Assembly (NCBI GenBank): GCA_035480855.1
Contig: DATIHJ010000026.1
Span: 1 to 55,746, forward strand
Length of the DNA: 55,746 nt
Reading direction: 5' to 3'
Origin: Patescibacteria group bacterium
GTDB taxonomy: Bacteria > Patescibacteriota > Saccharimonadia > Saccharimonadales > JANWIN01
Positions within the stretch are counted from its first letter, which is position 1. The number at the start of each line of letters is the position of its first letter. The translations under genes were made by a program, and so were the position numbers. Of the stretch, positions 28,540-44,789 are shown in pieces. The notes beneath the pieces were generated by a model that was not told the origin of the DNA, ran no database searches, and was given only the letters and a program-made list of their open reading frames with translations.

Positions 28540-31005
28540 TTATACTACGAAGTTAACTAGTTTACCTGGAACGTAAATAGTTTTGCGAATTGGCTTATCT
28601 AAATAGGTTTTGGCCTTGTCGCTTGATTTGGCAGCCTTCACGACTTCGTCTTCGCTACTTCCAGTTGCCACCTCAATATTCGCCCGAACCTTACCGTTGA
28701 CTTGAACGACTATGGTAATTGTTTCTGTGGATAGATATTTAGTGTCATGTGTGGGCCAATGATCAACATGGACACTATCTTCATGGCCTAGTTCATGCCA
28801 AAGCTCTTCGGCAATGTGTGGTCCAAACGGAGCGATGAGCATTACCAGACTCTCAAGCGTAAATTTCCAAGTATTTTCATCGCTAAAGCCCCCGGTTTTA
28901 AGCTTATAGAGATCATTTGTGCACTGCATCATGGCAGCAATAGCGGTGTTATATTTTTGTGTTTCTAAGTCATCGGAAACCTTTTTAATAGTTCTGTGAA
29001 TGATCGGTAAAATATCTGCGGCCTGGTCTTTCTTGTCAGTGTGACTATTGGTTGATGCCAAAAACTCTTGGGTTAAATTCCAAACACGTGACAAAAAGCG
29101 GTGTGTTGCTGGCACACCTTGTGCATCCCAACGCACCCACAGCTCTAACGGCGCAGCAAACATTAAGTAAGTTCGAAGTGCATCCGCCCCATAACCATCG
29201 TTAATGATCTCCAAGGGATCAATGCCGTTGCCTTTGCTCTTACTAAACATCCGACCGTCACTAGCCGTAACTTTACCGTTGAATAAAAATTTCTTAAAAG
29301 GTTCTGGCTTATCTACGAGCCCCTGCTTATGCAGGAACCGTGTAACAAAACGAGCATAAATCATATGGGCAGTGGCATGATCAGCACCATTGTAGAAATC
29401 TATGGGAATCCACTTGTTAACAATGTCGCTATTAAATATCCTTTTTTCATTATCTGGATCAAAGTAGCGCAACATGTACCAACTGCTGCATATATATGTA
29501 TCAAGCGTATCAGTTTCGCGCTCTGCTGGTTTACCGCATGTTGGACATGTTGTATGCAGCCAATCAGCTGCACGAGCTAAGGCACTACGACCATTGTCGG
29601 TTGATGCATAATCTTTAATTTCGGGCAAAATGACAGGTAGTTCTGCGTCGGGCAAAAGAACAGCTCCGTGGTCAGGACAATACACAATCGGAATTGGTGC
29701 ACCCCAGTAGCGCTGCCGCGATACACTCCAGTCTCGCATCTTGAAATTTACCTTTTCAACTGCAGCATCCTTTTTAGCTAGCCAGGCAGTAATTTTATCG
29801 CGGGCTTCTTCACTGCGCATGCCAGTAAATTCACCAGAGTCGATTAAAATACCTTCGCTAGTGTAGGGATATTCCTGAGCCTTAACTGCTTCAGCAGCCT
29901 TTTTATTCTCTGGAATAATTGTCACGCGGGCTGGAATTTTAAACTTCTTCAGAAATTCAAAGTCGCGTTCATCATGAATGTCACCGAAAACTGCGCCAGT
30001 GCCGTAACTCGCAATAACAAAATCTCCAACCCAAATTGGAACTTTCTCATTATTGGCTGGGTTAATGGCGTAAGCACCGGTAAAAACACCTGTTTTTTCT
30101 TTGTCGGCCTGGCGTTCAATATCGGTCTTTTTTAGGCTGTCAGCAACATAATCTTTAACAACCTTTTGATGTTCTTTAGTTGTTAGTTTATCTACGAGCG
30201 AGTGTTCTGGAGCAAGCACCATAAAAGCTGCGCTAAAGATGGTGTCAGCACGTGTTGTAAATACTGTGATTTCTTGCTTTTGGCCGTGTACTTTAAACCG
30301 TATCTCGGCGCCTATTGACCTACCGATCCAGTTCTTTTGTGCCAGCTTAACGCTTTCAGTCCAATCCAGATCGTCAATCGCTTCGAGTAATTCATCTGCG
30401 TAGTCGGTAATTTTAAAGAACCATTGCTTGACTTCACGCTGGGTAACCAGAGGGTCGTCAGGACCATCATGGCGCCAACACTTGCCGTCAATAACCTGCT
30501 CATTGGCAAGCACTGTATTATCTATTGAGCACCACCATTGCATGCGTGAATCTTGATAAGCAAGCCCGGCCCGATACATTTCACTAAAAATCCACTGTGT
30601 CCATTTGTAATACTTTGGCTCATGGGTAGCAATTTCCTTGGACCAGTCATTGCTCCAACCCATAGCCTTATACTGTTTGTGATAGCTCGGGATTATAGTA
30701 GCCATTGATTTTTGAGGAGACACACCAGCTTTAAGAGCGTAGTTTTCTGCTGGCAAGCCGAATGAATCCCAGCCAACTGGATGGTAGCTTTCATACCCTT
30801 GTTGTCGCTTAAATCGTGCCAACACATCACTAATGGTGTAGTTCATAGCATGGCCTATATGAATACCAGCACCACTAGGATAATTAAACATGCTCATAGC
30901 AATATACTTGGTTTTATTGCTAGTCAGATCAGCCTTGTAGGTTTGATCATCGTCCCACTTTTTTTGCCACTTGGGTTCAATCTCTTTGGGGTTGTATCGC
31001 CTCAT
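28540..31005 (-). CDS. leuS: Leucyl-tRNA synthetase
   Basis: An 821-aa class I synthetase with HIGHAMNY (HIGH), a CP1 editing region, an FSKSKGN (KMSKS-like) loop, and a typical LeuRS N-terminus MRRYNPKEIEPKWQKKW. Confidence 0.97.
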   Translation of the reverse strand: MRRYNPKEIEPKWQKKWDDDQTYKADLTSNKTKYIAMSMFNYPSGAGIHIGHAMNYTISDVLARFKRQQGYESYHPVGWDSFGLPAENYALKAGVSPQKSMATIIPSYHKQYKAMGWSNDWSKEIATHEPKYYKWTQWIFSEMYRAGLAYQDSRMQWWCSIDNTVLANEQVIDGKCWRHDGPDDPLVTQREVKQWFFKITDYADELLEAIDDLDWTESVKLAQKNWIGRSIGAEIRFKVHGQKQEITVFTTRADTIFSAAFMVLAPEHSLVDKLTTKEHQKVVKDYVADSLKKTDIERQADKEKTGVFTGAYAINPANNEKVPIWVGDFVIASYGTGAVFGDIHDERDFEFLKKFKIPARVTIIPENKKAAEAVKAQEYPYTSEGILIDSGEFTGMRSEEARDKITAWLAKKDAAVEKVNFKMRDWSVSRQRYWGAPIPIVYCPDHGAVLLPDAELPVILPEIKDYASTDNGRSALARAADWLHTTCPTCGKPAERETDTLDTYICSSWYMLRYFDPDNEKRIFNSDIVNKWIPIDFYNGADHATAHMIYARFVTRFLHKQGLVDKPEPFKKFLFNGKVTASDGRMFSKSKGNGIDPLEIINDGYGADALRTYLMFAAPLELWVRWDAQGVPATHRFLSRVWNLTQEFLASTNSHTDKKDQAADILPIIHRTIKKVSDDLETQKYNTAIAAMMQCTNDLYKLKTGGFSDENTWKFTLESLVMLIAPFGPHIAEELWHELGHEDSVHVDHWPTHDTKYLSTETITIVVQVNGKVRANIEVATGSSEDEVVKAAKSSDKAKTYLDKPIRKTIYVPGKLVNFVV

Positions 31006-31047: not shown

Positions 31048-31950
31048 CTAACGTCCAAAATAGATACCGCGACTGGTTAGATTAAGGCCTAACAGTTGGC
31101 TTACTGTTACGAGACGGTATTTGCTTTTTAGGTCGGTAACGATTTTATCAACCGCTGCCGCAGTTAGTGGTTTATCGTGCATAACTATAATGCCTCCTGG
31201 CTTGGCCTGGGACTCTACAATTTGGGCTACGGCGTTTGGGTCTTTTTGTGCCCAGTCTTTGGGGTCAACATTCCACATGATAATGGGCATGTTTATACGA
31301 CTAGCAATGGCCTCGTTTATTGACCCGTACGGTGGGCGAAGTAGATACGGTGCCGGCACACCAATAGCCGCAATCGCAGCCTGTGTCATATCAACTTGCT
31401 GCTGGACTTGGGCAGCTGGAATTTTAGTAAAATCTGGATGTGTCCAACTATGGTTACCAATATCACTGCCATCAGCATGAATCCTCTGCAAAATTGCTGC
31501 ACTTGGAGCAACTTTGTAGCCAAGTACAAAAAAGCTAGCGTGAACTTGAGCCTTTTCCAACGCACTTAGGATTATTGGAGTTGAGTCAGCATTAGGGCCG
31601 TCATCAAATGTTAGAGCCAAGCACTGTTCGACCTGGCAATCTGCCGGAGGTGGCGGGGGTGGAGTAGCTAACTTTTGGAGCAAAAAGGTTGATAGATTGT
31701 CTTGTTCTGGTGTAAGTTCTTGCTCTAGTTTTGAGACTGTCTTTAGATTGTCTGTCTGTTTTGCGCTAGATACTGTGATGTGCCTAACAGAAGTTGCACC
31801 AACTTGGCGGTGAACCTGTATATCTACTACCATTAGCACACCTATTATCAATGCCGCCAGCATACCTAAGTAAGCCTGCCCAAAATGTTTTGAGCGATAA
31901 GCAGCTTTTACCCGGTTATCCCATAACTCGGGCGTATTTACTATCCTCAC
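31048..31950 (-). CDS. Membrane-anchored polysaccharide (peptidoglycan) deacetylase, CE4 family
   Basis: N-terminal TM, a poly-Pro linker (PPPPPP), then NodB motifs TFDDGP, HSWTHP and LRPPYG. GTG start. Confidence 0.85.
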   Translation of the reverse strand: MRIVNTPELWDNRVKAAYRSKHFGQAYLGMLAALIIGVLMVVDIQVHRQVGATSVRHITVSSAKQTDNLKTVSKLEQELTPEQDNLSTFLLQKLATPPPPPPADCQVEQCLALTFDDGPNADSTPIILSALEKAQVHASFFVLGYKVAPSAAILQRIHADGSDIGNHSWTHPDFTKIPAAQVQQQVDMTQAAIAAIGVPAPYLLRPPYGSINEAIASRINMPIIMWNVDPKDWAQKDPNAVAQIVESQAKPGGIIVMHDKPLTAAAVDKIVTDLKSKYRLVTVSQLLGLNLTSRGIYFGR

Positions 31951-31994
31951 AGTCTTACTAACATACCCCGTCTACCTGATAAGGTCAATTACCG

Positions 31995-33020
31995 CTAGAG
32001 ATGTCTGAGTTTTCGGCGCGCCGTTTCGAACACAAACGTAGCCGGATATTTAATAGGGCTAATGATTAGATCCCGGGCAGGCAAGTAGGCCACATCTTCA
32101 CCACCAAAGCCACGCTTAAAGATGGAGACTCCATGAAAGCGGTGTTTAGTCTGTCCGTGTTCTGTAACACCCCAGAAGTTATAGCGAGTACAGCCACGAC
32201 GGCGGGCTTCACTAATTGCCTGCCACTGTATAGCATAGGCACCAGGAAACTCCCGTGCCAGCTCAGTACTAGCACCATAATGATAGGCTGCCTCTTTCCC
32301 GTAAAATATTACAAAAGCCATAGCCAGAAGCTTGCCTTGATGAGTTGAGCGGTATAGCAATACTTTATCTACCTCAGCAAAAGTCTTGAACTGTTCAGTC
32401 AAAAACTTCTTAGAAAAAGGCACAAAATTTTGCCGTTTGGCGGTTTCCATCTGTAACTGGCAAAACTCTTCTATATAGCTATCGTCTTTGCTGGCCTCTA
32501 CTTTTATGTCAAGCTTCTGGGCACGGTTTAGTTCATAACGTGTGCCCTTACGCATCATCTTTCTTAATTCGTCATCAGGTTTTGTCAAATCTAGCTGGCT
32601 AGTAAGGTCTGCAGTTACATGCATAGGTGATTTGTGAAATCCAAGTTTTTTAAAAAGCTGGCTATTCTGGGGATTATCCAATAGTTGAGGTCTTACCCTA
32701 ACAAATAAGCAATTGTTTGCATGGGCAACACGGCGAATAGTCTCTACCCAAGAAGTTATTAACTGTGAGTTTTGCCAGTCTATTATTGGTCCACCAGCCA
32801 CTACCAAATGGCGGCCGCGTCGGGCAGGCTCAACTACTGCTTGGACAACACCAACAAGCATATTGCCATCATAAAAACCATGGCGCTCCACAGTGTGGCC
32901 GAGACGCTGGTGGAACACGCCCCAGTACCAGGAATGCAAGAAGTTGGCCTCAGGTCGCTGGGCCAAAAACCCTTCCCATTCATCTTTATTGTCTACTATT
33001 TTGGTTGTGATTTGAGCCAT
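31995..33020 (-). CDS. FemAB-family aminoacyl-tRNA-dependent peptidoglycan branch-peptide transferase
   Basis: FLHSWYWG..........G.......GV.Q........R.L....GP, C-terminal YHYGAS.......GAYA.QW.AI..A...G...Y.FWG. Overall FemX/FemA-like length of 341 aa. Confidence 0.85.
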   Translation of the reverse strand: MAQITTKIVDNKDEWEGFLAQRPEANFLHSWYWGVFHQRLGHTVERHGFYDGNMLVGVVQAVVEPARRGRHLVVAGGPIIDWQNSQLITSWVETIRRVAHANNCLFVRVRPQLLDNPQNSQLFKKLGFHKSPMHVTADLTSQLDLTKPDDELRKMMRKGTRYELNRAQKLDIKVEASKDDSYIEEFCQLQMETAKRQNFVPFSKKFLTEQFKTFAEVDKVLLYRSTHQGKLLAMAFVIFYGKEAAYHYGASTELAREFPGAYAIQWQAISEARRRGCTRYNFWGVTEHGQTKHRFHGVSIFKRGFGGEDVAYLPARDLIISPIKYPATFVFETARRKLRHL

Positions 33021-34189
33021 TCGTTCACCTTTATTGCTATAAGTTTTGCTTTTTCGCCAGTTACATGGACATGAGTAGGTAAGTTAACTATATGCTTAGA
33101 CAATTCCTCCGCATTTGGGCAAGTACCAGCCTTGTAATCCGTTTTAGCTAAATATTTTATGGGTCCTATTGGCGCATCATACCAAGTATCTCCAATATGT
33201 ATGCCGTCCTTCCTTAGGTAGCTAACCAGTGAGTCCCGCTGGTCAACCCAAATAGGAAAACGCAAGTAAGTAGGTATGCCAGCTGGTTGGATTGATCTCA
33301 ATTGGGCTGGAAGTTGCTCATTATAAATAGCTGCTATCTCACGCCTATGGGCAAGCTCAGTTGCAAGTTGTTGCCAGCGCTGCAAAATTAAGCCCGCAGT
33401 AGAACTGCTCATTTGATGCAAGCCTTCCAGGTCATCACTCATTGGCGTGGCCATTAGGTTAAGTTTCTTGAGTATAAAGTGCACATAACGGCCCAGGCCT
33501 ATAGGGTATGTGCCACGTATAATAGCTGTCCAGAAAGGATACATGCGATTTTTAAGTCGTTGGCTGCTGCCAATTATGGGCAATTCGCTAGCCGGTTGTG
33601 CCGCTTGTCCTCGTCTGTCAATCATGGCACCACCAGCCACTACGTCGAGCGGCTTATCTTGGCTAAAAGACAGCATGGAAAATGCGCCTACTGTGCCAGC
33701 TTCGCGCCCATCCAGGTAAGTAAGCCCAGTGCTATGGGCCAGATCCTCAATAAGTAAAATAGCTGATTGTTGGCAATAGGCAGCAATGCTTTGCATGTCA
33801 GCGGGATATCCTAGTGTATTTTGTATTATTAGTGCCTTGATCTCTGGATGTTTAGCGTGGGCATGCTTTAGCTCTGTGATGCCAAAGTTTAGTTGGCCCG
33901 GCATAACGTCTATTGGCAGGCTTTTGTAGCCGGCATTTTCTACCGCTTTATAAACCGCATAGCATGTAAAGCCATTGATGCCTACCACACTACCAGCAGG
34001 TAATCCGCTGGCTTTCAGCGCAATCTCTAAAGCCTCCCTGCCCTTGTATGTTAGGATTGCCTGCCCGCCATAATGTTGCCCGAGGAGTTGAGCTAACTTG
34101 ATGTTTGAATCTTTGGATCCGCGTGCAAATAAATGTTGCCAAACATCTTTACTTAAATAGTTAGATCCTAGTGAGTTAAAAATGGCCAT
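32996..34189 (-). CDS. DegT/DnrJ/EryC1/StrS-family PLP-dependent aminotransferase
   Basis: The fold-type I sugar aminotransferase pattern includes the PLP-lysine region SFSQDKPL, and EDLAHS. It overlaps the upstream gene by ATGA and femAB by 25 nt. Confidence 0.85.
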   Translation of the reverse strand: MAIFNSLGSNYLSKDVWQHLFARGSKDSNIKLAQLLGQHYGGQAILTYKGREALEIALKASGLPAGSVVGINGFTCYAVYKAVENAGYKSLPIDVMPGQLNFGITELKHAHAKHPEIKALIIQNTLGYPADMQSIAAYCQQSAILLIEDLAHSTGLTYLDGREAGTVGAFSMLSFSQDKPLDVVAGGAMIDRRGQAAQPASELPIIGSSQRLKNRMYPFWTAIIRGTYPIGLGRYVHFILKKLNLMATPMSDDLEGLHQMSSSTAGLILQRWQQLATELAHRREIAAIYNEQLPAQLRSIQPAGIPTYLRFPIWVDQRDSLVSYLRKDGIHIGDTWYDAPIGPIKYLAKTDYKAGTCPNAEELSKHIVNLPTHVHVTGEKAKLIAIKVNEWLKSQPK

Positions 34190-34878
34190 CAGTTATCCAA
34201 GGCTTTCACAATTATTTCTGCCACTCTATCTGGGTGATTAAAAAATGGTGCATGGCGGGCATCATCAACAATGTTCAGGCTTGAGCCGGCTATACCTGCA
34301 TGGATTTTTTTGCCATCGTCCAGTGGTGTGATGCTGTCTTCCCTACCCCAAATAATCGTAACCGGTAATTTGACGAGGCTAAAATCTATCTTTTGGTCGG
34401 CAGCCAGCATGTTTCGCATTGTCTCCTTCATATTTGGCGGAGCATTGTTATAGTCCTGGGCACCAATAATTTTATAAAAAGCTTTTTTAATAGGTGGAAC
34501 GTGCGACAGGCCTTTTCCTACTTTGGATAAGTACTTCAGTGTTTTGAGTTTTATAGCGGCTTTAGTTTCGTTATGAGCCACACCGGCACTATCAATAAGT
34601 ATTAGTTGGTCCAGTTTGCCTGGATATTTTTGAACATAAGATAATGCAATTCTTCCGCCGTTGGAGTGACCTATGACTACTGGGTTTGGGGTATCCTTAA
34701 TTTTGCCATCAAGCCAACCTATGTAGCCATCTATGTCCCATACTTTGTCACTAGGCTCAGTTAGCCCAGGCACTTTTAGAAGCACGGGCTCAATTCCGCG
34801 CTTTTTTAGCTCATCTTGTAGTCCAGTCCACTTGTCTAGGTTATACGTCCAGCCGTGAATTATAAAAACCTGTTTCAC
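34189..34878 (-). CDS. Alpha/beta-fold hydrolase
   Basis: VFIIHGW, nucleophile elbow GHSNGG, and C-terminal D..H. GTG 34878 overlaps the MurF-like stop as GTGA. TTG 34893 in the track is less likely. Confidence 0.8.
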   Translation of the reverse strand: MKQVFIIHGWTYNLDKWTGLQDELKKRGIEPVLLKVPGLTEPSDKVWDIDGYIGWLDGKIKDTPNPVVIGHSNGGRIALSYVQKYPGKLDQLILIDSAGVAHNETKAAIKLKTLKYLSKVGKGLSHVPPIKKAFYKIIGAQDYNNAPPNMKETMRNMLAADQKIDFSLVKLPVTIIWGREDSITPLDDGKKIHAGIAGSSLNIVDDARHAPFFNHPDRVAEIIVKALDN

Positions 34879-36155
34879 CTTGGTAACCCCCAAGCTTGGC
34901 GACGTTTAGTCCATGTAGTGCCCCGGCGTACTAGCTGCTTTGCATCCTTTGGATCGGCCAGGAGTTGCTCAATCACACCCTCGAGCCCCTGCGCACCTTT
35001 AAATAATATAGTTTCGCCTCCCTTCAATTCTTTTTGCAGATAATCTAAGACTTCCCCAGCTAGCACAAAGCTTACTACCGTGCCTTCAGGTAGCTTATCT
35101 TTTAGGGTGGGATAGGAGTATTCGTGTGTGCGCTTACCAAGTAACACAACCCTGTCCACACTTATTTTGCTTATTTCCTCGGCAAGTCGTTTGTGTTCAT
35201 CGCTCTCTAAACTTCCCTGCTCTAAAATGTCTGCTATCACCAGCCATTTATGCTCTGCAGGATACGCTTTATATAGTTCCAGAATCGCCTTTACAGCCCC
35301 GAGCCCATTGTTGTAGGTACTATCAATAATTGTAGTGTTTTTTATGCCTTTTAAAATATTACTCCGCCCGGGAGGTAATTTTAGCTGGGTATAGCTTGTT
35401 TCAGATGGGAGATCAAAGTATTTGGTTAACTCACTTATCATCTGAAGACCAATTCCTACCTCTTTAGGGTGCAGACCTGGTACAGTAAATTTTTGGCCGC
35501 CAATTGTAAATATAGTTTGACTGGAAGTTAGCTCATAGTTTGTTACCGCTTTTGTAGACAACTGCTTGACTTCCACCCCTCTTTTGGCCCGTGCAAGTTC
35601 TCGTACCAGTTCTGGTTGGTCGCCATTGGCTAGCACTAGCTTAGTGGTGGCAGCTACAAAATCACTAAACTCTTTGGCAATTGCTGCTTCGTGAGAAGGA
35701 AATGTGCCGTTTTTGACAAGACTATCAAAGTTCATGCTATGTGTGTGCGAAAGGCTAACCCAAATTGTAACCTCTGGTTTTAAAAAGTTGGCAATAAAAT
35801 TCCCCTCATGAGGACGGTCACTATCTGCCTCAACCACATAGAGTTTTTGTGGCGGCAGGCTGCGGAATATGTTAAATGGAGCAGCGACCAAACGCACTAA
35901 CCAATCAGCCTTGGAGCTCACATTTGGCTCCATACCCAGGACATGAAATGGGATGCCTATGGCGCTATTAGCATGATGGCTATAGATTGCTTGTGTACCC
36001 ATCTGTGCTTCTGCTATGTGTAGTACGCTAGTTTTGCCACTGCTGCCAGTTATAACAACAATGCGTGGTTTCCAACGTCGTAAAACAAATTTAGCCCAAA
36101 AGGCAAAATAAGCAGCAACTACAAAGTACAGGCGCTTTTTAAGCGTATGAAGCAT
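34875..36155 (-). CDS. Mur ligase family protein, MurF-like but lacking the MurF N-terminal domain
   Basis: P-loop ITGSSGKTS about 35 aa from the N-terminus after a hydrophobic segment, DSTYNN (compare MurF DxxYNANP), and ADILEQG..S...H (compare GDMLELG). Confidence 0.8.
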   Translation of the reverse strand: MLHTLKKRLYFVVAAYFAFWAKFVLRRWKPRIVVITGSSGKTSVLHIAEAQMGTQAIYSHHANSAIGIPFHVLGMEPNVSSKADWLVRLVAAPFNIFRSLPPQKLYVVEADSDRPHEGNFIANFLKPEVTIWVSLSHTHSMNFDSLVKNGTFPSHEAAIAKEFSDFVAATTKLVLANGDQPELVRELARAKRGVEVKQLSTKAVTNYELTSSQTIFTIGGQKFTVPGLHPKEVGIGLQMISELTKYFDLPSETSYTQLKLPPGRSNILKGIKNTTIIDSTYNNGLGAVKAILELYKAYPAEHKWLVIADILEQGSLESDEHKRLAEEISKISVDRVVLLGKRTHEYSYPTLKDKLPEGTVVSFVLAGEVLDYLQKELKGGETILFKGAQGLEGVIEQLLADPKDAKQLVRRGTTWTKRRQAWGLPR

Positions 36156-36200
36156 ACGCCTATTTTACCCCATATAGGGGTTTAGAAGTAATCACAAGGA

Positions 36201-36230
36201 TTAAAAAAGCTCCGGCTAAAGCAGGAGCTT
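36201..36230 (-). terminator. Intrinsic terminator (minus strand) after the minihelix, before the Mur-ligase operon
   Basis: The minus strand reads AAGCTCC-t-GC-ttta-GC-c-GGAGCTT followed by TTTTTTAATCC. Confidence 0.65.
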
Positions 36231-36240
36231 CAAAATTTAC

Positions 36241-36277
36241 TGGTGGAGCAATTGTAGGCGTAAACCTACAATGCCCC
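36241..36277 (-). ncRNA. tRNA-Ala-like acceptor-arm minihelix with encoded ACCA end
   Basis: The minus strand is GGGGCATTGTAGGTTTACGCCTACAATTGCTCCACCA. It folds as G1-C33, G2-C32, G3:U31, G4-C30, C5-G29, A6-U28, a U27 bulge, seven further pairs and a 6-nt loop, ending in single-stranded ACCA. The first 9 nt and last 10 nt are identical to tRNA-Ala(GGC) at 37274-37350. Expression has not been shown. Confidence 0.5.
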
Positions 36278-36328
36278 ATAGCAAATGTATAGTAACAAAC
36301 AAATAAGCGATGTAAAAGACTGGCCGTA

Positions 36329-37273: not shown

Positions 37274-37350
37274 TGGTGGAGCATGAGGGATTCGAACCCT
37301 CGACCTCTTGCCTGCCAGGCAAGCGCGCTAGCCAACTGCGCCAATGCCCC
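37274..37350 (-). tRNA. tRNA-Ala (anticodon GGC), CCA encoded
   Basis: Manual fold: GGGGCAT/ATGCTCC acceptor with G3:U70, D-arm GCGC-AGTTGGCTA-GCGC, anticodon arm CTTGC-CTGGCAG-GCAAG, T-arm GAGGG-TTCGAAT-CCCTC, A73, CCA. Confidence 0.95.
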
Positions 37351-37730: not shown

Positions 37731-37806
37731 TGGTGGAGTCGGGGAGACTTGAACTCCCTACCTCAGCAATGCGAATGCTGCGCTCTACCAGGTGAGCTAC
37801 GACCCC
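37731..37806 (-). tRNA. tRNA-Ala (anticodon CGC), CCA encoded
   Basis: GGGGTCG/CGACTCC acceptor with G3:U70, D-arm GCTC-ACCTGGTA-GAGC, anticodon arm CAGCA-TTCGCAT-TGCTG, T-arm GGGAG-TTCAAGT-CTCCC, A73, CCA. Confidence 0.95.
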
Positions 37807-44701: not shown

Positions 44702-44789
44702 TGGTGGGCAAGGAGGGACTCGAACCCTCAAGGCTTATGCAGCCAACAGATTTTAAGTCTGTCGCGTATACCAATTCCGCCACTCGCCC
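44702..44789 (-). tRNA. tRNA-Leu (anticodon TAA), type II with long variable arm, CCA encoded
   Basis: Acceptor GGGCGAG/CTTGCCC, anticodon arm ACAGA-CTTAAAA-TCTGT, a long variable arm (TGGCTGCATAAGCCTTG region), T-arm GAGGG-TTCGAGT-CCCTC, A73, CCA. Confidence 0.93.

Follow-up and report, generated by a model that had tools for sequence, protein, structure and literature searches.

The window analysed here is a 55,746-nt stretch of Patescibacteria DNA, contig C26 of an 837,804-bp Saccharimonadales genome (27 contigs, 95.9% complete), and it carries on its minus strand a cassette of wall-related genes. The core of this cassette consists of a Mur ligase gene followed by what we call the trio, that is, an alpha/beta-fold hydrolase, a DegT-fold pyridoxal phosphate (PLP) enzyme and a FemX-type transferase (Fem); a polysaccharide deacetylase gene comes next. 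The main point, overlooked by the first-pass annotation of this DNA, is that the cassette stands where relatives have ddl, the gene for the D-Ala-D-Ala ligase, and that the genomes carrying it are without Ddl. This alternation in situ is the most important fact revealed by our analysis. Literature searches returned no paper describing it, nor any description of this operon or of Ddl-less members of the candidate phyla radiation (CPR), which agrees with the earlier remark that the gene combination is not a characterised pathway.

To document the alternation, we used an evenly drawn sample of 151 Saccharimonadales genomes, 27 with the cassette and 124 without it. A true Ddl was called from searches with Ddl models when the match had an E-value below 1e-40 and was full length, or was split or truncated by a contig end. 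True Ddl was found in none of the 27 cassette genomes and in 104 of the 124 others (Fisher p = 2e-17, although the sampled genomes are akin to one another, so that Fisher p-values overstate their independence). The alternation recurs within the mixed families f1, to which this genome belongs, f10, f32 and f64. Moreover, it takes place in one slot: in Saccharimonadales, an ortholog of a 304-aa membrane protein and leuS flank either the cassette or murF-ddl, often extended to murF-ddl-dat. Relatives accordingly read murF-ddl-leuS (G031), murF-hyd-mur2-ddl-dat-leuS (G029) or murF-leuS (G098) at this place. Outside the order sample, we searched a further 50 genomes with a cassette-type ligase, 48 of them with the trio or a variant of it; no Ddl was found in 44 of these 48. 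The class IV aminotransferase of the ddl-linked Dat type is likewise unevenly distributed, being encoded in ~40 Ddl genomes versus 2 of the 27 cassette genomes. Alanine racemase (Alr) was also considered as a discriminator, and proved uninformative, as only 11 of the 151 genomes have it (none of the 27 with the cassette).

Other contents of the slot were also observed. G029 (L064:2889-8523) harbors a short murF, an alpha/beta hydrolase, a 474-aa second MurF-like ligase with a long N-terminus, ddl, a class IV aminotransferase and leuS, and the same module is present in L153 (G001). The hydrolase thus travels with MurF even beside Ddl, and some genomes have two MurF-like ligases. In G038 (L191:4573-6726) and G134 (L193:7395-9492), which lack both Ddl and the cassette, a 264-282-aa protein without a known family and a class I/II aminotransferase lie between a regular murF and leuS, and may represent a third murF-partner module.

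We then assessed the nature of the ligase, which the first-pass annotation had left undecided between MurF, MurT and CapB relatives. By profile and by fold, it is MurF-like. Pfam Mur_ligase_M (PF08245, 26.7 bits) and Mur_ligase_C (PF02875, 39.3 bits) both score above their cut-offs, and all five NCBIfam matches are to MurF-type models, the best being murF TIGR01143 with 100.6 bits against a cut-off of 288.6, a curated score that the ddl-linked MurFs of relatives (202-223 bits) miss as well. A sequence search of the PDB gave four matches, every one of them MurF. Consistently, the AlphaFold model of the ligase (pLDDT 93) retrieved MurF structures at Foldseek ranks 1-10 and MurT from rank 19, with no CapB among the 50 matches listed. 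The genome encodes five Mur-family proteins, namely MurC, MurD, MurE, FolC and the cassette ligase, and a search of this 95.9%-complete genome with the murF model disclosed no further candidate. The cassette ligase is thus the only MurF candidate of the genome; MurT, CapB and an extra MurF paralog were ruled out by the profile, PDB sequence and fold searches and by the gene census. That the ligase is the only MurF was one of the outcomes named in the first-pass annotation as refuting its idea. As the sole MurF, it is predicted to catalyse the final ligation by which the peptidoglycan stem peptide is built in the cytoplasm.

The ligase had been described as starting almost at its P-loop, near residue 36, without the N-terminal domain of MurF, and this description holds. 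The P-loop TGSSGKT occupies residues 36-42 and is invariant in 22 orthologs; upstream of it, a single conserved helix of 27 residues (2-28) stands where MurF has its UDP-binding domain (~80 aa), and the match to the murF model begins at model position 114 of 418. A conserved, basic tail closes the protein. The truncation is nonetheless typical of the lineage and not special to the cassette, because the MurE of this genome (435 aa; contig C13:8151-9458, minus strand) also misses its N-terminal domain, with a model match from position 73, and relatives with ddl next to murF have MurFs that are just as short (420-445 aa).

Phylogeny further connects this ligase to the product of Ddl. In two loci where the ligase occurs alone (L133 and L147), ddl lies directly downstream and encodes a true Ddl (E ~1e-113 to 1e-115); in a FastTree phylogeny, the ligases of both loci nest among the trio-linked ones. 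Cassette-type ligases would therefore be able to work with the Ddl product, which points to a trio that provides this substrate or one like it, and not to another role of the ligase. The ligase of G044, again alone, in a genome with Ddl and Alr encoded elsewhere, is basal to the cassette-type clade.

On these grounds we favor, tentatively and at somewhat less than an even chance, the reading that the trio supplies the terminal unit of MurF without Ddl, its chemistry being deduced from gene neighbourhood and co-occurrence. The three partner enzymes would supply or complete a D-Ala-D-Ala-type unit for MurF with no ATP-grasp ligase. Fem would replace Ddl as the enzyme that forms the peptide bond, tRNA-Ala being the source of activated alanine, which a dedicated acceptor mimic may carry in part of the Saccharimonadales; the PLP enzyme would take over the amine or stereochemical step done by Dat or Alr elsewhere; and the hydrolase would release or proofread an intermediate. 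A D-Ala-D-Ala-like terminus is still expected, since the genome encodes a class B penicillin-binding protein (PBP; PF00905, 188 bits), a class A PBP and an S11 DD-carboxypeptidase (Peptidase_S11, 82 bits), together with a MurI-like racemase, and no YkuD motif was found in it. Taken at full reach, the proposal would be that many Patescibacteria finish the stem peptide without an ATP-grasp D-Ala-D-Ala ligase, a FemX-type enzyme building the terminal unit from alanyl-tRNA, a DegT-fold enzyme setting the amine or D-configuration and the hydrolase releasing or proofreading, while in Saccharimonadales anticodon-less tRNA-Ala mimics, kept out of translation, carry the alanine; that all of this holds together is unlikely.

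The cassette itself is compact and deeply conserved. Open reading frames, family matches (Pfam and NCBIfam, clear for each gene) and junctions bear out the earlier description of five tightly coupled genes on the minus strand. Ligase and hydrolase overlap by GTGA, with the GTG start of the hydrolase at 34878, from which its relatives align, and not from the upstream TTG at 34893; the PLP enzyme and Fem genes overlap by 25 nt, and 44 nt separate Fem from the deacetylase. Only the ATGA reported between hydrolase and PLP enzyme has to be corrected, as this junction reads TGATG, an overlap of 1 nt.

The order ligase-hydrolase-DegT-Fem was found on one strand in 25 of 25 fetched Saccharimonadales loci, and up to the contig end in G144. 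In a scan of a collection with one genome per GTDB species, we read the gene order in the 80 best of at least 542 loci with ligase relatives: 66 had the full four-gene order and 8 more were broken by contig ends, the variants being ligase-hydrolase-Fem-Fem, DegT-Fem-ligase-hydrolase and ligase alone, with two loci each. Such recurrence places the arrangement far beyond chance. The record names of these 80 loci, some of them generic CPR names, include Saccharibacteria, Levy-, Gottesman-, Roizman- and Doudnabacteria, Microgenomates and Paceibacterota. Hence, the first four genes form a deeply conserved operon of Patescibacteria (CPR). Within the order sample, Fem orthologs (at least 38% identity) occur in 26 of the 151 genomes, and ligase orthologs in those 26 plus G144 and G044; the other genomes with a ligase match at E <= 1e-10 have a single MurF-like gene each, with 23-35% identity. 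In one cassette clade, the Fem gene is duplicated in tandem (L058-L061, L131 and L137).

The deacetylase, by contrast with the core, is not constant: roughly every second Saccharimonadales locus has it 3' of the cassette, and no other locus among the 80 best does. It is a membrane-anchored protein with a PgdA model score of 154.7 bits, below the cut-off, and with TFDDG and HSWTH metal motifs in its translation; a promoter-like site (31988-31960) falls in the 44-nt gap before it. We infer from this patchy occurrence, the gap and the site of its own that it is an ordinary, separately promoted wall-modifying add-on of the lineage, outside the conserved core.

All three partner enzymes retain their catalytic residues. 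The HGW and GHSxGG (Ser72) motifs, Asp181 and His209 of the hydrolase, corresponding to the triad and oxyanion motif, are invariant in 22 orthologs, as are the pyridine-binding Asp149 and the Schiff-base Lys179 (SFSQDK) of the DegT-fold enzyme. Fem, the single FemAB locus of the genome, matches PF02388 over both halves (model positions 3-231 and 307-401) and, like Weissella FemX, has no coiled-coil insert. A profile of 23 Fem orthologs matches S. aureus FemX, FemA and the FemX of Weissella viridescens (FemX_Wv, a UDP-MurNAc-pentapeptide:L-Ala transferase; PDB 1NE9, 4II9) in full length, covering residues 8-310 of the latter. Lys36 and Arg211, the acceptor-binding residues of FemX_Wv, are not clearly kept in Fem, the alignment being ambiguous there. 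Lys302 of Fem, in the motif FKxxF, is invariant and aligns with Lys305 (VFKHVF) of FemX_Wv, for which a catalytic role has been described (PMC12945691). The two proteins are also of similar length (341 and 335 aa); the match, however, reaches only ~71 bits with a family profile, and Fem, unlike FemX_Wv, is co-operonic with MurF and nearly exclusive with Ddl.

For the DegT-fold enzyme, a homolog search gave automatic names only, and its NCBIfam matches (at most 80 bits, against cut-offs of at least 375) are confined to the N-terminal half. Its nearest solved relatives in the PDB are nucleoside-diphosphate (NDP)-sugar or inosose aminotransferases without exception, and this could be taken to mean that the product of the enzyme is an amino sugar, either bound to a nucleotide or part of a wall glycopolymer precursor. 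Fem would then acylate the amine of this sugar with alanine from Ala-tRNA, the hydrolase would take off a protecting acyl group, and the operon would merely be shared with murF. The Fem-like Orf11, which glycylates an amino sugar in BD-12 biosynthesis (PMC12945691), offers a precedent, and the deacetylase downstream in the window would also fit. We consider this scenario quite improbable, however. The structural matches cover only residues ~32-212, at E 1e-17 or weaker; the cassette comprises no dehydratase, dehydrogenase or glycosyltransferase by which a keto sugar could be formed or consumed; some loci have lost DegT and retain ligase-hydrolase-Fem-Fem; and the exclusion of Ddl is left unexplained.

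The proposal that the trio stands in for Ddl has, in turn, to face several adverse observations, besides the kinship of the sampled genomes. An aminoacyl-tRNA delivers L-alanine, and we know of no DegT-fold enzyme that epimerises or makes D-amino acids. Twenty genomes of the order, including the closed, one-contig G046, have neither a true Ddl nor the cassette and keep a regular MurF; Ddl can thus be dispensed with in other ways too, for example by scavenging or through unrecognised ligases. Among the 48 further genomes with the trio or a variant, one of which is a 4.8-Mb mixed bin, three have a Ddl-like gene (E 1e-49 to 1e-61) beside the cassette. DegT has been lost from L131, labelled goat jejunum, and from L137, which both read ligase-hydrolase-Fem-Fem, and the search for Ddl in their genomes was negative as well. 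In our genome, a class IV aminotransferase is encoded, and the window contains an ATP-grasp paralog that scores 84-97 bits with Ddl models (cut-offs ~243), which qualifies its description as Ddl-less.

These facts leave room for a more classical assignment, in which a plain MurF adds D-Ala-D-Ala that is scavenged from a host or comes from a ligase not recognised as such, for instance the ATP-grasp paralog. Fem, in the manner of FemX_Wv, MurM and BppA1, would use Ala-tRNA to attach L-Ala to the third residue at its side-chain amine, and hydrolase and DegT would serve unrelated roles in the wall or in precursor editing. Fem is indeed closest to peptidoglycan Fem enzymes (full-length FemX and FemA; NCBIfam FemX), and the tandem Fem pairs are reminiscent of the Ala-Ala bridges that BppA1/BppA2 and MurM/MurN build in two steps; likewise, genomes living without Ddl and cassette, the Ddl-like paralog and the few genomes combining cassette and Ddl are easily accommodated. 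On the other hand, this assignment leaves unexplained both the near-perfect alternation of trio and ddl in the same slot and the return of ddl immediately behind the ligase in just those loci that have no trio (L133 and L147). Branching itself is also questionable here: the MurE of the genome scores 369 bits on meso-diaminopimelate (DAP)-type versus 223 on Lys-type models and reads EDDR in place of the E. coli motif DNPR, whose Arg is thereby preserved, and Fem bridges are rare in DAP-type walls. As for the paralog, it is unlikely to be the missing Ddl, for it is only 21% identical to the true Ddl of a relative, is devoid of the DYxAKY loop, occurs alongside true Ddl in many genomes and has no counterpart in at least 11 of those with the cassette. 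We regard the classical assignment, the main rival of the favored reading, as a real yet doubtful possibility.

Upstream of the cassette, the same strand carries two tRNA-Ala genes and a 37-nt tRNA-Ala acceptor minihelix, as first annotated. The minihelix presents G3:U70, A73 and an encoded CCA on a continuous helix. It had been placed directly upstream of the cassette, and the cassette does start on the same strand, 85 nt beyond it; the two are nevertheless not one transcript reached by simple read-through, because a terminator-like hairpin with a U-run lies between them and the minihelix has a promoter-like site of its own ending 12 nt before it. The region 36195-36300 folds with -39.4 kcal/mol (z = -6.0). 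The promoter-like sites count as weak evidence, their number in the region not exceeding the shuffled expectation.

To trace the minihelix in relatives, we built a covariance model (R1) of the 36-nt form from six minihelix sequences of equal length; weak R1 matches (E ~0.1) were set aside, since they fall on genuine tRNA-Ala genes, in the 3' half. G3:U70, A73 and CCA are kept in 16 distinct minihelix sequences despite compensatory changes in the stem. We also uncovered a second form of mimic, a cloverleaf of 59-63 nt whose 7-bp acceptor stem has G3:U70 and is followed by ACCA, with three short hairpins and, at the site of the anticodon loop, a tetraloop. This form looks like an intermediate between tRNA-Ala and the 35-nt minihelix. 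It occurs in 8 of the 151 genomes, all 8 with the cassette, whereas the minihelix is located beside the ligase gene in 9 cassette genomes and elsewhere in the genome in 2. Either mimic was detected in 19 of the 27 cassette genomes versus 5 of the 124 others (odds ratio 57), usually 50-150 nt from the ligase gene and in variable orientation to it, on the opposite strand in some relatives. The co-occurrence of minihelix and cassette, which the first-pass annotation had proposed to check, is therefore strong within Saccharimonadales, but it does not extend further: no mimic was found in 8 of the 27 cassette genomes of the order, nor at any cassette locus placed outside Saccharimonadales, and the cassette is thus widespread without it.

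Conversely, minihelices are present in five genomes without the cassette. In G116 and G001 they precede a regular murF or a hyd-mur2-ddl module, and the Fem search found no match in G116; in G033, G146 and G064 they lie between tRNA-Ala(UGC) and tRNA-Ile(GAU). Since cassettes occur without the minihelix and minihelices without the cassette, in one case without a Fem match, the minihelix is an accessory confined to Saccharimonadales and not an obligatory donor; a wide occurrence of the cassette without it had been named in the first-pass annotation as refuting its idea. The three minihelices between the two tRNA genes (L155:1501-1536, L156:1501-1536 and L158:939-974) have a position that resembles the spacer of an rRNA operon. 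In two cassette genomes, G023 and G087 (L159:1501-1537 and L160:1501-1537), the minihelix is unlinked and sits between rsmA-like and YfiH/PgeF-like genes, both named by eye from N-terminal residues.

The idea of the first-pass annotation itself, that the 37-nt minihelix would be a dedicated non-ribosomal alanyl donor for Fem, is compatible as an add-on with either role of this enzyme, and alanine is the likely amino acid of Fem given the adjacent mimics. The alanine identity determinants conserved through compensatory changes, the restriction of the cloverleaf form to cassette genomes and the enrichment of mimics near the ligase gene all point in this direction, as does the acceptance of acylated RNA helices by FemX_Wv (PMC2655667). 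Furthermore, the alanyl-tRNA synthetase (AlaRS) of the genome (646 aa; contig C11:22805-24745, plus strand) contains a catalytic domain as well as the tRNA_SAD editing motif and lacks the C-Ala (DHHA1) domain, so that it probably relies on the acceptor stem alone. The cassettes without a mimic, the minihelices before regular murF-ddl genes, between tRNA genes or unlinked, and the missing Fem match in G116 all speak against it, and on balance we consider a dedicated donor role rather unlikely. The D-aminoacyl-tRNA deacylase DTD (PF02580) was uninformative as a test of a D-Ala-tRNA route, being absent from all 151 genomes of the order in a search that matched 8 of 14 control genomes. Together, the AlaRS without C-Ala and the absence of DTD are permissive for a donor role of the mimics, not decisive.

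Comparison with known systems puts the favored substitution of Ddl by the trio in context. The D-Ala-D-Ala branch of Alr, Ddl and MurF is commonly regarded as present in all bacteria that have a wall. D-cycloserine targets this branch, as does vancomycin by way of its product. The present system resembles the canonical Alr/Dat-Ddl-MurF branch, exemplified by the ddl-murF operon, in its sole MurF-fold ligase, in the slot, and in having a PBP transpeptidase and an S11 DD-carboxypeptidase as users. It departs from that branch in having the hydrolase, the DegT-fold enzyme and Fem instead of Ddl, Alr or the ddl-linked Dat, and a single helix instead of the UDP-binding domain of canonical MurF.

Staphylococci possess non-proteinogenic tRNA-Gly species, genome-encoded acceptor RNAs that are thought to feed Fem enzymes and not the ribosome, a theme taken up in PMC2175331. 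Those are full-length and have an anticodon, whereas the mimics found here have no anticodon loop, being either helices of 34-38 nt or cloverleaves of 59-63 nt. In DhpH, a PLP-dependent enzyme forms the N-terminal domain and prepares the acceptor for DhpH-C. A Fem enzyme acting as dipeptide maker has a precedent in this Fem-like DhpH-C of dehydrophos biosynthesis, which uses Leu-tRNA and a free analogue of an amino acid to build a dipeptide (PMC12945691). DhpH differs, though, in belonging to Streptomyces secondary metabolism, in using Leu-tRNA and in the fold class of its PLP enzyme, while the cassette is a core wall operon of reduced genomes. Another variation on the stem peptide, the MurD2/MurL route, adds L-Glu first and then epimerises it. 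This alternative early route of Xanthomonas (PMC8788868) concerns D-Glu at position 2 and involves another epimerase family and no tRNA. For FemX_Wv, acylated RNA-helix donors are described (PMC2655667, PMC2175331).

A whole radiation of ultra-small bacteria keeps MurF, PBPs and DD-carboxypeptidase, while the operon slot of ddl is taken over by genes for a hydrolase, a PLP enzyme and a tRNA-dependent transferase. If this swap is functional, aminoacyl-tRNA would have a novel use in primary metabolism, natural tRNA-Ala mimics without an anticodon would gain a role, and genome-based predictions of CPR wall chemistry, antibiotic sensitivity and host dependence would change. Even if it is not, the annotation is corrected in that the cassette ligase is the real MurF of these genomes and not an extra ligase. 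The features discussed are collected in Table 1.

Table 1. Features of the window around the cassette, with mini-cloverleaf genes of relatives in the last row
Feature	Position	Strand	Evidence or remark
Short MurF-type ligase, 426 aa	34875..36155	-	Pfam Mur_ligase_M + Mur_ligase_C
Alpha/beta-fold serine hydrolase, 229 aa from GTG	34189..34878	-	Abhydrolase_1, Hydrolase_4 (S33), Abhydrolase_6
DegT/DnrJ/EryC1-fold PLP enzyme, 397 aa	32996..34189	-	PF01041, 135.5 bits
FemX-type aminoacyl-tRNA-dependent transferase (predicted), 341 aa	31995..33020	-	PF02388, 135.9 bits
Membrane-anchored PgdA/NodB-type polysaccharide deacetylase, 300 aa	31048..31950	-	PF01522, 107 bits
tRNA-Ala acceptor minihelix, 37 nt, GGGGCAUUGUAGGUUUACGCCUACAAUUGCUCCACCA	36241..36277	-	Sequence, fold, covariance model R1 (35.8 bits)
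Terminator-like hairpin + U-run	36203..36231	-	Fold + sequence; between minihelix and cassette
Promoter-like site TTTACA-16-TGnTACTAT	36289..36316	-	Consensus scan
ATP-grasp protein distantly like Ddl, 355 aa	15798..16865	-	Dala_Dala_lig_C only, 73 bits
leuS (LeuRS, 821 aa)	28540..31005	-	Open reading frame + synteny; downstream border of the cassette / murF-ddl(-dat) slot
Membrane protein of no known family, 304 aa	36329..37243	-	Without Pfam or NCBIfam match
tRNA-Ala(GGC)	37274..37350	-	ARAGORN; Rfam tRNA
tRNA-Ala(CGC)	37731-37806	-	ARAGORN; Rfam tRNA; beyond whiB-like gene
Mini-cloverleaf genes	L048:3646-3704, L050:3615-3677, L052:13171-13233, L055:8051-8110, L057:13248-13310, L134:7676-7738

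Regarding the neighbours of the cassette, orthologs of the 304-aa membrane protein lie upstream of it in 18 loci and also upstream of the regular murF in G036, G038 and G134. This protein is therefore a syntenic upstream neighbour of Saccharimonadales murF-type genes, whichever module comes next. The tRNA-Ala(GGC) and tRNA-Ala(CGC) genes score 68.5 and 62.3 bits, respectively, with the Rfam tRNA model, and the window also contains a tRNA-Leu(UAA) gene at 44702-44789. A full tRNA-Ala(GGC), often with tRNA-Leu(UAA), was likewise observed 0.2-6.6 kb upstream of the cassette ligase in L123, L126, L138, L145 and L101, which are labelled Levy- or Doudnabacteria, except for two with uninformative labels; the window has the same tRNA pair near its cassette. 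Finally, the leuS gene 3' of the cassette is recovered in many relatives as two or three tblastn pieces, 0.45-1.1 kb apart (L044:4597-7482, L046:11826-15221, L045:5063-7945 and others), which hints that the gene is split, or carries a large insertion, around residue 365-380, while the leuS of the window is continuous.

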